32,000 nt of DNA from Propionibacteriaceae bacterium (GCA_031256725.1 JAIRQE010000009.1:1-32000); one strand, 5' to 3'. Positions 24,901 to 29,337 are shown, numbered from the stretch's first letter. Notes: generated from the sequence alone by a model not told the origin. A program made the numbers and translations.

Positions 24901-27900
24901 ATGAAGATCAAACTCACCCTTGCAACTCCTCAGGGTCCTCGAGATATAGCCGTCACTGCAGACGCAACAGCTACAGTCGAAGATGTTGCTGCAACTATAG
25001 AGAGAAGCCTCGCCTTTCAGGCGGGGCTTGCTCCTTCCGCACCACCCCATGGACTTACCTTGCAGACCCTCAATCGAGAGGGTCAAGTGGAACGCACGCT
25101 CCTATCAGAGTCCAGCCTCACAGATGCAGGCCTACTGTCGGGTGCTCATGTAAGGGTGAACAGAGTCGAAAGACCCGCTCACATAGATGATCGCTCCTCT
25201 GCTGCTGCTCTACTTCATATCGTCAAAGGGCCAGAGATAGGCAAAACTCTGACTTTACGCTCTGGACCAAATACTATTGGCCGGAGTCCTGCAGCTGACA
25301 TCACTATCAATGATCCCTTTATTTCTGGCATCCACGCGCGAGTAGTTGTTTCTGATCATGTCCAAATCATTGACATGAACTCCGCAAATGGGATCACTAT
25401 AGGTGATGGCTTAGTTGAACGCGCCAATCTAGAATCTCATGACATTGTCGTTATCGGTGATACTCACTTCCGAGTCGAGCGCAACATGTCCGCAGGTGCT
25501 GCTTCCGCTTGGAGTACCTCCATCGAGTTCAATCGCTCACCTCAGGTTTGGCCTAAATACGAAGGCAAGACTTTCAAACTGCCACAACCTCCTGGTACTC
25601 CCAAACCTAATAAGTTTCCTCTCATCGCGATGTTAGCTCCGCTGGTCATGGGAGCCATCATGTTCTTGCTGACACGAGAAGTCATGAGCATAATATTCGT
25701 TGCACTCAGCCCAGTCATTGGCGTCATCACTTGGCTTGATCGAGTTATCGCGGACAAGAAGGAGCTCAAGCAACGGGTCAAGGACTTCACCGAAGACATA
25801 GAGGTCCTGACTGATGAGGTGACATCGTCTCTGGAAGAAGAACAACAGATTCGACGAACCGAAGTTCCTTCACTGGCCGCCCTCGTCAGTTCTGTGTCTC
25901 AACTTACGCCCACATTGTGGCATAGGCGACCTGATGATGAGACTTTCCTAACCCTCACTGGAGGATATGGAACCACCCCATCTCGTTCAACACTTGACTC
26001 CCCTCAGCGTGGGGAGTCCCCAACAGAATTATGGAAACAAATTGAAGATCTCCAAGCAGTGGGAAAGAGTGTTGAGAACGTCCCCATTCTGGTTCCACTA
26101 CGAGAAACAGGGAATCTTGGCATAGCAGGTACCTCTTCTTGGCTTGATTCTGTTGCCTGCGCAATGCTCACGCAATTGGCATGCTTGCACTCTCCTGCTG
26201 AGGTCACCATCGCTGGTATCGCATCCCAGGCCTCATGCCACCGTTGGACCTGGTTGATGTGGCTGCCCCATGTGGGTTCAACTCATTCCCCCATTGATGG
26301 TCCTCATCTTGCTTCCACTCCTGCAGCTGTGTCCTCCTTAATATCTAAACTCGAGGAGCTCTCAGCAAAGAGACGTGAGTATTTACAGAATGCAAGCGAG
26401 GCACTACCTGCGATCATCCTATTGGTTGAAAACGATGCACCCATTGAGCGTGGCCGCTTGGTGTCTTTGGCTGAGAAGGGCCCCGAGACTGGAATCCACC
26501 TCATTTGGATTGCCTCCGAACAACCTGATCTTCCTGCAGCCTGCCATGCATATTTCATTGAAGATCATGGTGAGCAGATGATGAAGATCGGCTTTACTCA
26601 CGACAATGTAGAAATCAACATCAGTTCATGTGAGACTCTCCCTCCCTCACAAGCTCTTGCAGTGGCTCGAAAGATGTCCCCCATCCAGGATGCCGGAGCT
26701 CCTGTTGTCGATCAGTCAGATCTTCCTAGATCTATCTCTTACCTAACTCTTGCTGGAGCACCCTTTGCTGATGATCCCTCTTTTACCTTGGAACGATGGG
26801 CTGAGAATGGTTCCCTTCTTCGGCCTGGGGAACTTCCTCCATCATCCGGTTCGAACCTTAGGGGCCTAGTGGGGCAAGGGTCACATGGAGAGTTCGTCCT
26901 TGATCTTCGAGTACATGGGCCCCATGCTCTTGTGGGTGGAACCACTGGCGCTGGAAAGTCAGAGTTCCTCCAAGCCTGGGTTCTGGGTATGGCAGGAGCC
27001 AATAGCCCCAAGAGGATAACCTTCCTTTTTGTTGATTACAAGGGTGGAGCAGCCTTCGCTGAATGTGTGCAACTCCCCCATTGCGTGGGACTCGTGACAG
27101 ACCTTTCACCCCATCTAGTACGTCGGGCACTGACATCACTCAAGGCCGAACTTCGTTACCGGGAGCATCTCCTTAACGACAAGGAAGCCAAGGATCTGGT
27201 TTCTCTTGAAGCCACAGGAGATCCCGAGTGCCCACCCTCACTCATCATCATTGTCGATGAGTTTGCTGCTCTCGCCAAGGAGATTCCCGAGTTTGTTGAT
27301 GGAGTCGTGGATGTTGCCCAACGTGGCCGCTCCTTAGGTATGCATCTCATCATGGCCACACAGCGCCCTGCGGGTGTTATCAAGGATAATCTTCGAGCAA
27401 ACACCAATCTCCGAATTGCGCTAAGAATGGCAGATGAGTCAGATTCAACTGATGTTATTGGAACACCTCTTGCATCTGAGTTTGATTCCCGTACCCCTGG
27501 TAGAGGGGCGGTGCGCACAGGACCAGGTCGAATTGCTTTGTTCCAGTCGGGATATGCAGGTGGGCGTACTAAGAGCGAACCAGAGCCTTCGAGGGTTGAC
27601 ATTGAGACGATGGTTTTCGGAGCAGGAATTCCTTGGGAAGTACCTTCACTAACAGGTACAAAACCCAAGGCCACTGGACCGAAAGACATTCAGAGAATTG
27701 TGAGAAGCATTTGTACAGCCTCTGCTATTGCCCAAGTCCCTGAACCACGCAAACCGTGGCTACCGGATTTACAAGATGCCTATGATCTAGACGAACTGTT
27801 CCCACTGACTATAAATCAGGCCAAAGAGACTGGAGCGACGAACCTAGCTCTGGGCATCATGGATGATCCAGCTCACCAAGATCAACATCCAGTCTTCTGG

Positions 27901-29337
27901 AACCCAGATACTGACGGAAACCTTGCTATCTACGGTGCTTCTGGTTCTGGAAAATCAGCGACTCTGCGTACGATAGCCACCTCAGCCGCAGTGCTCGCAC
28001 ACGCCTCGCGTATTGACATCTATGGGTTTGATTGCGGAGCTGGTGGTCTTGCCATGCTTGAACCTCTTCCACCTGTTGGAGAGATTATTGAGTGTTCTGA
28101 CCAAGAGCGTGTTGGTCGACTTTTGCGACGACTTGTAGCCACCCTCGACAAGCGACCTGCTATGTTCAAAGAGGTCAGAGCTGGGTCACTATCTGACTAT
28201 AGGAGGTTAGCTAATGACCCGACCATCCCACGGATACTCCTCCTCATTGATGGCTTTGCCGCCTTCAGAGAGTATTACGAAGGGACCATAGGTCTGTCAC
28301 ATATCTTCTCAATGCTCGCGCGCATCATGGCTGAAGGTCGATCTTTGGGGATCCATGTGGCGTTGTCGGCAGAACGTCCTAACGCGATCAGTACATCACT
28401 CTCATCCAGCATTCAGCGTCGCCTTATTTTACGTCAGGCCGATGAAGGTGCCTATACTTCATTGGGTATCGCCAAGGATATTCTCAATCCCTCAAGCCCA
28501 GCAGGTCGTGGGGTTTTCTCTGAGGAATCAAATGAAATTCAGATTTCAATACAGAATAAAACTCCTGACACCGAACAGCAAGCTGGTTCTATTGACAAGC
28601 TCGCTAAAGGAATGACACAAGCAGGTATTCTTCCTGCACCTTCGGTGGAACGCTTACCCACGTTCATCCCCATCACAGATGTCCCCACTTCGATTGATGG
28701 CATGCCTGTCATGGGTGTTGCAGAAGACACTCTCCAACCGTTCGGATTCAGACCCAATGGAACTTTCGTGATCTCTGGGATGCCTGGTACTGGGCGTACC
28801 TCTGCCTTGAGATGGATTGGACATTCTTTGCACCGTTGGAATCCTAGAATCCCAAAGTTCTATATTGGACCCAGTCGTTCTGTGATTCACACAGAAGGAA
28901 TCTGGACTGATACCGCTAAGAATGAAGAAGAAATCATCGCCTTAGGAAAAGACATTCTTCCTGATTTTCAAAAGCCTGTAGAAAATCTACCTGGAGCGAT
29001 CTTGGTCTTAGAGTCTTTGACTGAACTCACGGGTACCTCATGCGAAGATGTACTGATTTCTCTCATTCGGGCTGGGCGACGTAATGGCCACCTTGTCATT
29101 GGTGAAGCAGAGACCCCTGGATGGGGATCCGCATGGGCCCTCATCTCAGAGATTCGCAATGGACGGCGCGGTGTGGTTCTTCAACCAGATCAAGTTGACG
29201 GCGAAACCCTGTTTAGGGTGAATTTCCCAAGAGTTCAGCGAGCAGACTTCCCTCTAGGTCGTGGCATATTCGTTGACTCTGGGAAACATAGAACAGTGCA
29301 ACTACCGCTGCCCGAATCAGTGTTGGGAGAGAACTAG
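24901..29337 (+). CDS. essC: T7SS EssC/EccC-type FtsK/SpoIIIE ATPase with N-terminal ubiquitin-like and FHA domains
   Basis: 1478 aa. Residues 1-90 show a beta-grasp pattern ending SSLTDAGLLSGAHVRV. The FHA domain (~25200-25490) has GR (codons 127-128), SGIH (142-145) and NG (163-164). Two TM helices lie at ~25615-25740. There are three P-loop domains. D1 has GGTTGAGKS (26935-26961) plus IIIVDEF. D2 has GASGSGKS (27934-27957) plus LLIDGF. D3 has GMPGTGRTS (28777-28803). Confidence 0.93.
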   Translation: MKIKLTLATPQGPRDIAVTADATATVEDVAATIERSLAFQAGLAPSAPPHGLTLQTLNREGQVERTLLSESSLTDAGLLSGAHVRVNRVERPAHIDDRSSAAALLHIVKGPEIGKTLTLRSGPNTIGRSPAADITINDPFISGIHARVVVSDHVQIIDMNSANGITIGDGLVERANLESHDIVVIGDTHFRVERNMSAGAASAWSTSIEFNRSPQVWPKYEGKTFKLPQPPGTPKPNKFPLIAMLAPLVMGAIMFLLTREVMSIIFVALSPVIGVITWLDRVIADKKELKQRVKDFTEDIEVLTDEVTSSLEEEQQIRRTEVPSLAALVSSVSQLTPTLWHRRPDDETFLTLTGGYGTTPSRSTLDSPQRGESPTELWKQIEDLQAVGKSVENVPILVPLRETGNLGIAGTSSWLDSVACAMLTQLACLHSPAEVTIAGIASQASCHRWTWLMWLPHVGSTHSPIDGPHLASTPAAVSSLISKLEELSAKRREYLQNASEALPAIILLVENDAPIERGRLVSLAEKGPETGIHLIWIASEQPDLPAACHAYFIEDHGEQMMKIGFTHDNVEINISSCETLPPSQALAVARKMSPIQDAGAPVVDQSDLPRSISYLTLAGAPFADDPSFTLERWAENGSLLRPGELPPSSGSNLRGLVGQGSHGEFVLDLRVHGPHALVGGTTGAGKSEFLQAWVLGMAGANSPKRITFLFVDYKGGAAFAECVQLPHCVGLVTDLSPHLVRRALTSLKAELRYREHLLNDKEAKDLVSLEATGDPECPPSLIIIVDEFAALAKEIPEFVDGVVDVAQRGRSLGMHLIMATQRPAGVIKDNLRANTNLRIALRMADESDSTDVIGTPLASEFDSRTPGRGAVRTGPGRIALFQSGYAGGRTKSEPEPSRVDIETMVFGAGIPWEVPSLTGTKPKATGPKDIQRIVRSICTASAIAQVPEPRKPWLPDLQDAYDLDELFPLTINQAKETGATNLALGIMDDPAHQDQHPVFWNPDTDGNLAIYGASGSGKSATLRTIATSAAVLAHASRIDIYGFDCGAGGLAMLEPLPPVGEIIECSDQERVGRLLRRLVATLDKRPAMFKEVRAGSLSDYRRLANDPTIPRILLLIDGFAAFREYYEGTIGLSHIFSMLARIMAEGRSLGIHVALSAERPNAISTSLSSSIQRRLILRQADEGAYTSLGIAKDILNPSSPAGRGVFSEESNEIQISIQNKTPDTEQQAGSIDKLAKGMTQAGILPAPSVERLPTFIPITDVPTSIDGMPVMGVAEDTLQPFGFRPNGTFVISGMPGTGRTSALRWIGHSLHRWNPRIPKFYIGPSRSVIHTEGIWTDTAKNEEEIIALGKDILPDFQKPVENLPGAILVLESLTELTGTSCEDVLISLIRAGRRNGHLVIGEAETPGWGSAWALISEIRNGRRGVVLQPDQVDGETLFRVNFPRVQRADFPLGRGIFVDSGKHRTVQLPLPESVLGEN

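Follow-up and report, generated by a model that had tools for sequence, protein, structure and literature searches.

How many parts of a type VII secretion system (T7SS) can be carried by a single polypeptide? The question is raised by a gene in a 32,000-nucleotide stretch of DNA from a Propionibacteriaceae bacterium (GCA_031256725.1 JAIRQE010000009.1:1-32000), the whole of which is called the window here. A preliminary description had presented this gene as an EssC ATPase fused to a ubiquitin-like (Ubl) domain and to one forkhead-associated (FHA) domain fit to read a phosphorylation signal. Our analyses support a T7SS-type Ubl beta-grasp, as modelled for residues 1-89, fused to the ATPase and followed by one FHA domain, and suggest that the gene's product probably serves as translocase ATPase in a type VII-like secretion system belonging to an undescribed actinobacterial subtype. 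We are highly confident of the order of modules along the chain, namely Ubl, linker, one canonical FHA, the FNRSPQ motif, two transmembrane (TM) helices, DUF/D0, D1, D2 and D3, located as follows:

24901..29337, plus strand: whole gene, a 1478-residue membrane-bound T7SS-type FtsK/SpoIIIE ATPase (EssC/EccC-like)
24901..25167, plus strand: predicted Ubl beta-grasp, residues 1-89, without a C-terminal Gly-Gly (AlphaFold2, Foldseek and profile search)
25168..25200, plus strand: flexible linker between Ubl and FHA, residues 90-100 (low model confidence, variable alignment)
25201..25485, plus strand: FHA domain, residues 101-195, with G127-R128, S142-x-x-H145 and S161-x-N163-G164 (Pfam, Foldseek and GarA alignment)
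25528..25545, plus strand: FNRSPQ juxtamembrane motif, residues 210-215 (family conservation)
25612..25746, plus strand: two predicted TM helices (about 238-259 and 262-282), residues 238-282 (hydropathy windows; collinear with the TM/stalk region of YukB)
25768..26820, plus strand: DUF/D0 pseudo-ATPase, residues about 290-640, with approximate limits (EccC3 and YukB alignment)
26848..27597, plus strand: D1, residues about 650-899 (Pfam FtsK_SpoIIIE over 661-824)
26938-26961, plus strand: D1 Walker A GTTGAGKS, residues 680-687
27244-27264, plus strand: D1 Walker B IIIVDEF, residues 782-788
27598..27639, plus strand: counterpart of the YukB D1 beta-hairpin (918-931), residues 900-913, DIETMVFGAGIPWE (phmmer alignment to 9qks_G)
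27778..28590, plus strand: D2, residues about 960-1230 (motifs; EccCb model match)
27934-27957, plus strand: D2 Walker A GASGSGKS, residues 1012-1019
28237-28257, plus strand: D2 Walker B LLLIDGF, lacking the Glu, residues 1113-1119
28648..29334, plus strand: D3, residues about 1250-1478 (motifs)
28777-28800, plus strand: D3 Walker A GMPGTGRT, with Arg in place of Lys, residues 1293-1300
28999-29016, plus strand: D3 Walker B ILVLES, residues 1367-1372

The open reading frame (ORF; 24901-29337, plus strand) starts with ATG, includes its stop codon and encodes 1478 amino acids (aa). Its N-terminal MK[IL]KLTL is kept across the aligned ATPase homologues, which establishes the start codon. An identical protein is named at NCBI 'MAG: FHA domain-containing protein [Propionibacteriaceae bacterium]' (MAG, metagenome-assembled genome), and the same protein is also encoded on an 83.7-kb Logan contig (locus L041). 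Pfam recognized FtsK_SpoIIIE (E 2.5e-51) and one FHA domain (residues 125-186, E 5.8e-11), while the closest PDB entries by sequence were Thermomonospora curvata EccC (4nh0, 3e-69), Bacillus subtilis YukB (9qks, 4e-60) and EccC5. Residues 236-955 align collinearly with YukB 253-972 (9qks), residues 254-540 align with the EccC3 DUF structures 6sgw and 6umm, and the broad hallmarks of a T7SS ATPase are all present, that is, TM helices, DUF/D0 and three tandem P-loop domains with Walker A motifs at 680, 1012 and 1293. The three curated NCBIfam models scored below their cut-offs: EssC (TIGR03928) reached 570.9 bits against 778.4, EccCa (TIGR03924) 339.8 against 509.15 and EccCb (TIGR03925), which spans residues 943-1323, 320.6 against 346.55. 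This indicates a distinct subfamily, for which 'EssC' can serve as a family-level label only. Taken together, the Pfam, NCBIfam and PDB matches place the protein among the type VII secretion ATPases of the EccC/EssC family, outside every curated subfamily, so that the earlier name of EssC ATPase was right as to the family and loose as to the subfamily.

The N-terminal domain is what sets this ATPase apart. In known systems the Ubl module is either a separate protein or part of another subunit, as had been stated beforehand: it is the free YukD/EsaB in T7SSb and belongs to EccD in T7SSa (PMC11217815, PMC1779556). AlphaFold2 was given an alignment in which eight homologues from metagenomes (35-40% identity) accompany the window protein, and returned for residues 1-93 (Ubl alone) a predicted local distance difference test score (pLDDT) of 86 and a predicted template modelling score (pTM) of 0.76, and for residues 1-209 (Ubl plus FHA) a pLDDT of 81 and a pTM of 0.49. 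Both models place strands at 2-9 and 12-19, a helix at 26-40 and further strands at 52-57, 63-67 and 82-88, which is the order of the ubiquitin beta-grasp, and the 15-residue helix within residues 1-89 argues that this region is not a degenerate first FHA domain (FHA1). When the Ubl was compared with the PDB by Foldseek, the top matches were EccD5 Ubl domains of ESX-5 (7b9f_X, 7npt_D8, 7np7_D2, 7b9s_5 and 7b7j; E 4e-5 to 1.6e-4, identity 17-23%, template modelling (TM-)score about 0.45-0.55), followed by ubiquitin, SUMO, NEDD8 and Hub1. The predicted domain has no Gly-Gly at its C-terminus, the sequence continuing instead into a linker whose residues 90-99 are disordered in the two-domain model (pLDDT <50) and whose length and sequence differ among homologues.

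This architecture is far from exceptional, a point on which the preliminary description is to be corrected. A Ubl-only profile searched against 1.84 billion cluster representatives (50%-identity clusters) retrieved 388 proteins at E<=1e-3, 140 of them at E<=1e-10. The Ubl starts at residue 1 almost always, complete proteins have 1382-1516 aa and the short matches are contig fragments. Likewise, 440 proteins passed E<=1e-50 in the full-length search, and the top 120 of them span about 95-100% of the query. The source is a Propionibacteriaceae bacterium of termite-gut type. The closest genomes are termite-gut Propionibacteriaceae MAGs (67-80% identity), and relatives occur in Arthrobacter, Pseudarthrobacter, Herbiconiux, Cryobacterium, Cnuibacter, Cellulomonas, Brachybacterium, Propionicimonas, Nocardioides and Bifidobacteriaceae MAGs; Arthrobacter, Cellulomonas, Herbiconiux and Brachybacterium among them are cultured. 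A second clade, at about 29% identity, comprises Actinospica, Catenulispora, Actinocrinis, Catellatospora and Rugosimonospora (L011-L028). Its members carry before the FHA a compact domain of about 65 aa, MRFVHRD...RPDAVVADLAAALG...L..SGLV.GS.V, which hhalign found homologous to the Ubl of the window protein (probability 93.6%, E 2e-7). The neighbours of this second clade include conserved families of its own, of about 356, 424, 338 and 709 aa, plus a kinase.

Databases name these relatives "FtsK/SpoIIIE domain-containing protein", "FHA domain-containing protein" or "cell division protein FtsK", and the precomputed annotation of the Pfam YukD family (PF08817) is attached to none of the listed relatives. 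No description of a Ubl-ATPase fusion, nor of a Micrococcales or Arthrobacter T7SS, was found in the literature searched, whose coverage leaves out many subscription papers. The fused Ubl is therefore conserved, unannotated and, as far as we found, undescribed; the architecture is common, but it is not already annotated as an EssC subclass with known partners. Two natural variants are informative. In P0146 (L045) the Ubl is joined straight to the membrane region and no FHA intervenes, an FHA being found on the upstream 549-aa protein, and in P0062 (L043, Brachybacterium equifaecis) the FHA is degenerate; the Ubl is retained in both, as are the RDD-family gene and the paired genes for W-x-G proteins of about 88 aa at both loci.

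The second module is a single FHA domain whose residues 103-194 were modelled with pLDDT >90. Its nearest structures by Foldseek were GarA, OdhI, FhaA (Rv0020c) and EmbR, phosphopeptide complexes included, with root-mean-square deviations (rmsd) of 1.2-1.9 Å and target TM-scores of 0.84-0.90. In the residue alignment with GarA, G127-R128 falls on GR, S142-G-I-H145 on SRRH and S161-A-N163-G164 on SLNG. The family alignment shows no variation at R128, S142, H145, S161, N163 or G164, and the full GR/SxxH/NG motif was present in 71 of the 84 family members long enough to assess. The view that the protein has one FHA domain keeping the Gly-Arg, Ser-x-x-His and Asn-Gly positions is thus borne out by superposition, alignment and family invariance alike, and the domain does superimpose on phosphothreonine (pThr)-binding FHA domains such as GarA, OdhI and FhaA. 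These comparisons support a canonical FHA with an intact predicted pThr pocket, which would be expected to bind pThr. Firmicute EssC FHA domains had been called non-canonical, in agreement with the 0% conservation of their pThr-contacting positions (PMC11217815, Table S1). On the other hand, Garrett et al. 2024 (PMC11217815, Table S1) found GR/SxxH/NG conserved at 90-100% in TsdC, TseC and TsjC, all of which have a partner kinase, and phospho-control has already been proposed for T7SSd, T7SSe and T7SSj (PMC11217815); a pThr-competent FHA on an EssC-type ATPase is consequently not new.

If this FHA reads a phosphorylation signal, a candidate source for that signal lies next to the gene. Downstream of the ATPase, and convergent with it, the window contains the following genes:

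29334..29981, minus strand: 215-aa LRV_2 protein whose C-terminus has TM segments; its gene closes the convergent signalling operon (Pfam LRV_2 E 3.4e-17)
30006..30755, minus strand: protein 'Y', about 246 aa, with a divergent FHA-like N-terminus and a helix-turn-helix-like C-terminus (conserved partner gene)
30743..32000, minus strand: membrane Ser/Thr protein kinase, 550 aa in full, whose N-lobe lies past the window end (Pfam Pkinase)

Followed past the window end (L041 15843-24437), the operon runs LRV_2/TM, Y, kinase, X (487 aa, with a C-terminal FHA), PP2C, Zn-ribbon-FHA, TgpA, DUF58 and MoxR AAA+. The kinase keeps HRDIKPAN and DFG intact; a truncated pseudogene, as the ORF list had suggested, was excluded, since the frame stays open as far as the window reaches and the source contig carries the gene in its full 550-aa length. 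Among 29 related loci surveyed 10 kb around the ATPase, the homologous kinase family occurs in 17, including loci of the distant clade (about 29% identity), Y and an FHA protein in nine each, TgpA, DUF58 and MoxR in seven to eight and PP2C in five. The Brachybacterium locus (L043), the sole one examined in which the ATPase FHA is degenerate, has neither kinase nor PP2C nearby. In a complete Arthrobacter genome (L046) the genes form one co-directional string, DUF58-TgpA-RDD/FHA-PP2C-X-kinase-Y-ATPase, in which Y (9300-10004) overlaps the start of the ATPase gene. Y also abuts or overlaps that start from directly upstream in the paralogous Propionibacteriaceae and Nocardioides loci L006-L010, an overlap of stop and start that would fit a core partner whose translation is coupled to that of the ATPase. 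Y proteins (about 235-250 aa) had no Pfam or NCBIfam match. They keep the GR and have YLHR in place of SxxH, and their similarity to FHA domains is weak (Rv1747 FHA-1 E 0.059; hhalign E 0.095), for which reasons we discarded Y as a canonical FHA regulator. The MoxR-DUF58-TgpA triad, which lies beside the ATPase in seven to eight loci and abuts it directly in L044, has to our knowledge no link to T7SS.

How might these elements work together? In the 2025 cryo-electron microscopy (cryo-EM) work, YukD is wedged between the FHA domains, the DUF and the D1 beta-hairpin (918-931) of YukB, and, by stabilising the YukB FHA, allows binding of the pseudokinase YukC (PMC12637312). In the protein described here the fused Ubl would replace the free YukD/EsaB or the EccD Ubl, docking in cis on its own DUF domain and D1 beta-hairpin (900-913) and fixing the place of the FHA in the way that free YukD acts in trans on YukB. 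The FHA might then bind pThr on the autophosphorylated membrane Hanks-type kinase, or on X or Y. The kinase, catalytically intact by its motifs, would be the likely counterpart of EssB/YukC, and the neighbouring PP2C phosphatase would remove the pThr. Phosphorylation would in this way gate both the assembly or activation of a hexameric channel and the export of WXG100 proteins and helical substrates, with D1 hydrolysing ATP and with D2 and D3 acting as regulatory or substrate-docking modules. We put the probability of this mechanism as a whole at about 0.5. What the analyses show are the predicted folds, the conserved motifs, the order of domains, the gene neighbourhood and the spread of the family, whereas docking in cis, binding of pThr, the choice of phospho-partner and secretion as such are steps that we infer.

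The observations weighing against this reading concern, in the first place, the Ubl. The two-domain model gave no confident packing of Ubl on FHA (pTM 0.49), and the sequence link to the YukD and EccD families is weak. Pfam YukD did not match the window protein at E<=1. Six of 48 diverse family members matched it (best E 2.1e-5), and the TmoB and OTU1-UBXL models were matched about as often (OTU1_UBXL nine, TmoB four, with ubiquitin two). PDB profile searches with the Ubl gave non-significant beta-grasp matches only, the best being the PKC-zeta PB1 domain and a redesigned ubiquitin. By hhalign, the Ubl compared with the verified EccD1 Ubl yielded E 0.074, and compared with a 22-sequence YukD/EccD-Ubl profile E 0.0026 with a probability of 11%, confined to the C-terminal motif; the clade-2 Ubl gave E 0.0011 against that profile and the negative control 0.18. 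YukD-family homology was therefore left unproven by sequence after the Pfam, PDB-profile and hhalign attempts, and we claim only the fold and the context. Of the proposal that residues 1-90 are a beta-grasp of the YukD/EsaB/EccD type, the fold stands, structure prediction having returned it with the EccD5 Ubl as the closest in the PDB, while homology by sequence is not established. Specific homology to the YukD/EccD Ubl (PF08817) is likely but not proven; the structure points to it.

The weak YukD/EccD link and the TmoB and OTU1-UBXL matches leave room for a beta-grasp recruited independently, as a generic adaptor that would dock in the PB1 or UBX manner on the partner kinase, on Y or on the FHA protein X and not on its own DUF. 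TM-scores to EccD5 of only about 0.45-0.55 would agree with such an origin. However, roughly the first five Foldseek matches are all EccD5 Ubl domains of a T7SS and have the highest identities in the list. A Ubl is moreover found in nearly every T7SS, where it binds the DUF of the ATPase, no free Ubl was found in the loci examined, and the domain persists where the FHA is lost. Lastly, the C-terminal motif L..sL.d.G[VL].xGs.[VL].[VL] was recovered with both independent sub-family profiles. Recruitment of a generic adaptor is thus unlikely, though it is the alternative that fares best.

A further difficulty is that the kinase is absent within 10 kb at L040, L042 and L044, where the FHA is intact. 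This would be expected if the FHA were a phospho-independent scaffold, as in firmicute EssC, its motif being conserved for the stability of the fold while the kinase operon regulates something else. EssC/YukB FHA domains do bind the EssB/YukC pseudokinase without phosphorylation (PMC11217815, PMC12637312), and the kinase operon is also tied to the MoxR-DUF58-TgpA genes. Nevertheless, pThr-contacting positions that are all invariant here, as against 0% in EssC (PMC11217815, Table S1), are difficult to reconcile with a mere scaffold, as are nearest structures that are bona fide pThr binders, kinase synteny across two deeply diverged clades and an FHA that is degenerate at a locus devoid of kinase. 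We regard a phospho-independent role as improbable and prefer the phosphorylation-gated mechanism.

That mechanism is also weakened on the side of secretion, since neither the window nor the loci examined revealed evident outer or scaffold parts in the membrane. No WXG100 gene adjoins the Arthrobacter ATPase (L046), and none was detectable in the distant clade with the seeds used. An FtsK-like translocase of DNA or other cargo, serving a MoxR-DUF58-TgpA-PP2C-kinase envelope module to which WXG100 adjacency would be secondary, could account for the missing WXG100 genes as well as for the Arthrobacter ATPase ending a long DUF58-to-Y operon and for the database name 'cell division protein FtsK', but it is very improbable given the TM-DUF-three-P-loop layout, best hidden Markov model and PDB matches to EccC/EssC/YukB and not to FtsK, WXG100 or WXG-like proteins of about 88 aa (W-x-G) flanking the ATPase in 16 of 17 clade-1 loci, and the lack of any FtsK gamma or DNA-binding domain detectable by Pfam in the ATPase.

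A secretory, phosphorylation-gated ATPase with its own Ubl would resemble, in part, each of the systems described so far. With T7SSb (EssC/YukB) it shares the N-terminal FHA region, the xRSPR motif, two TM helices, the DUF, three P-loops and nearby WXG100 genes. It is collinear with YukB, including the D1 hairpin that contacts YukD, and in both systems a Ubl without Gly-Gly is associated with the ATPase. However, the Ubl is fused here, whereas it is a separate protein of about 80 aa in B. subtilis and Staphylococcus aureus (9qks, PMC12637312); there is one FHA with canonical motifs as opposed to the two of EssC, whose pThr pocket is 0% conserved; the kinase has intact motifs whereas EssB is a pseudokinase; and the host is an actinobacterium. 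EssA, EssB and EsaA were not found in the window or in the loci examined, nor was a free YukD gene (PF08817) among the called genes of seven loci.

The T7SSa or ESX systems (7np7, 7b9f, 4kv2) belong to the same phylum. Their EccD5 carries the closest Ubl, the core of the ATPase matches EccC 4nh0 (3e-69), and in both cases the Ubl belongs to a larger membrane subunit and is not free. The ESX Ubl, in contrast, resides on the 11-12-TM EccD and not on the ATPase, and EccC has no FHA. The Pfam families of EccB, EccD, EccE and MycP are absent from the 32-kb window, from the 10 kb beyond it and from L040-L046.

With T7SSd, T7SSe and T7SSj (TsdC, TseC, TsjC; PMC11217815) the likeness lies in the GR/SxxH/NG FHA together with a membrane Ser/Thr kinase, to which T7SSe adds PP2C and FHA proteins. 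The accessory genes differ, being here Y, X-FHA, LRV_2 and MoxR-DUF58-TgpA. T7SSd is, in addition, actinobacterial and has no free Ubl gene, having been described as "surprisingly" devoid of a Ubl (PMC11217815). We considered whether the fusion might supply this 'missing' Ubl and ruled it out on the printed N-terminus of Olsenella uli TsdC (Fig. S2, PMC11217815), which is an FHA1-like region, apparently all-beta and of about 115 aa, aligned with EssC FHA1 and followed by a canonical FHA, and not the MKLKLTL...TADATATVGDVA Ubl. The present family accordingly leaves the Ubl puzzle of T7SSd unsolved. That N-terminus and the published description set the family apart from T7SSd; the window holds no TsdI-like giant Ig protein, and the genera carrying the Ubl-ATPase family are not mentioned in PMC11217815 or its supplements. 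Finally, the FHA shares 26-30% identity, an rmsd of 1.2-1.9 Å and identical pThr-contacting residues with GarA/OdhI, FhaA (Rv0020c) and FhaB (Rv0019c), and the FhaA-FhaB-PstP-PknA/B cluster likewise joins a Hanks kinase and a PP2C phosphatase, but the FHA described here is no free regulator, being built into a secretion ATPase.

Type VII secretion underlies mycobacterial virulence as well as interbacterial killing in Gram-positive bacteria. The family described here probably marks an unclassified actinobacterial T7SS subtype. The fuller proposal, for which we see even odds, is that of an unrecognised but widespread subtype of the Actinomycetota, in which the Ubl has been absorbed by the ATPase, every known T7SSa and T7SSb membrane partner is lacking, and the system is wired to its own switch of kinase, PP2C and multiple FHA proteins, often together with MoxR-DUF58-transglutaminase genes. 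As proposed, it would range over Micrococcales, Propionibacteriales and termite-gut Bifidobacteriaceae MAGs, with a sister clade in Catenulisporales and Micromonosporales.

Although the Ubl is near-universal in T7SS, its structural role was shown only in 2025. A Ubl-ATPase fusion conserved in hundreds of actinobacterial lineages would indicate from evolution, as an independent line of evidence, that the contact between Ubl and ATPase is the core of the machine, and would represent a third way of supplying the Ubl, besides the free protein and the EccD domain. If the reading holds, the protein is a natural single-chain YukD-YukB unit, offering a minimal and genetically tractable model of Ubl and phosphorylation control of T7SS assembly. 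The predicted pThr reader, the dedicated kinase and phosphatase, the failure to find known accessory membrane proteins and its occurrence in non-pathogenic genera that are easily grown, such as Arthrobacter and Cellulomonas, would make it a convenient one for phosphorylation-gated assembly. Under labels such as 'cell division protein FtsK' or 'FHA domain-containing protein', a system of this kind would be invisible both in current annotations and in the 2024 T7SS classification. The idea that one polypeptide unites functions split elsewhere and reads phosphorylation has thus gained the fused Ubl, the single canonical FHA and the kinase, PP2C and FHA neighbours; what it loses is novelty in part, the architecture being common and the phospho-reading FHA already published for sister systems. 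The new element is the fusion, and it mainly corroborates the recent cryo-EM work (PMC12637312).

As for the ATPase domains, the motifs reported earlier were confirmed, D1 alone combining the Walker A Lys with an Asp-Glu Walker B, while D2 and D3 have signatures of nucleotide binding that are non-catalytic, but this is nothing special to the protein. The same D1/D2/D3 Walker pattern was found in 22 of 22 aligned full-length relatives, most family members have Arg instead of Lys in the D3 Walker A, and a catalytic signature in D1 only is the usual EccC/EssC pattern, so that we dropped it as a distinguishing trait. Ahead of the TM helices, the juxtamembrane motif is conserved in the family as xNRSPRV and matches the Y/F-x-R-S/A-P-R of EssC/TsxC (Fig. 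S2, PMC11217815).

On its upstream side the ATPase gene is preceded by a co-directional cluster:

19903..20193, plus strand: WXG100 gene (EsxA-like), first of the co-directional cluster (Pfam WXG100 E 4.2e-17)
20195..24865, plus strand: four co-directional genes of unassigned families, encoding about 198-218, 286, 494 and 568 aa (ORFs and gene calls)

The four genes are conserved among close relatives only and are candidate substrates or accessory parts. The 494-aa protein (21641-23125, plus strand) has a conserved helical N-terminus of about 100 aa followed by about 390 aa of Pro/His/Glu-rich low complexity, with HPGHGHH... and PEPE... runs, and could be a T7SS substrate or provide a metal-binding tail. 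The 568-aa protein (23159-24865, plus strand), conserved in seven loci, has a coiled-coil N-terminal half and a Gly/Ala-rich multi-TM C-terminal half, with weak matches to PF21725 T7SS_signal and PPE; it may be either an effector that inserts into membranes or a structural partner of the ATPase in the membrane. At L042-L045, pairs of genes for proteins of about 87-102 aa lie beside the ATPase, sharing an E/D-W-x-G-x-D hairpin motif and invisible to Pfam WXG100; they probably constitute a divergent WXG100 subfamily.

The left boundary of the cluster is formed by a string of menaquinone-type genes immediately upstream (15006-19821, minus strand), encoding a thiamine pyrophosphate enzyme (MenD-like), an enolase-superfamily MenC-like protein, UbiA (MenA-like) and an AMP-ligase (MenE-like), all of which also border the cluster in L001 and L002. 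The last of them appeared in the window as a 564-aa AMP-binding ORF (18628-20322, minus strand) overlapping the WXG100 gene on the opposite strand; the gene call of the source contig, 397 aa ending near 19821, indicates that its first 167 codons or so are spurious. Elsewhere in the window, a PknB-type kinase with four PASTA repeats (6087-8075, plus strand), an NlpC/P60 hydrolase (12444-13448, minus strand) and an M23 peptidase with a coiled-coil N-terminus (13569-14840, minus strand) are housekeeping cell-wall genes unrelated to the ATPase. At L042 (1108-6296, minus strand) the cluster lies beside type IV pilus/Tad-like genes, namely two T2SSE ATPases, T2SSF and a prepilin, an arrangement that echoes the adjacency of T7SSg and T7SSh to Tad genes noted by Garrett et al. 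2024 (PMC11217815).

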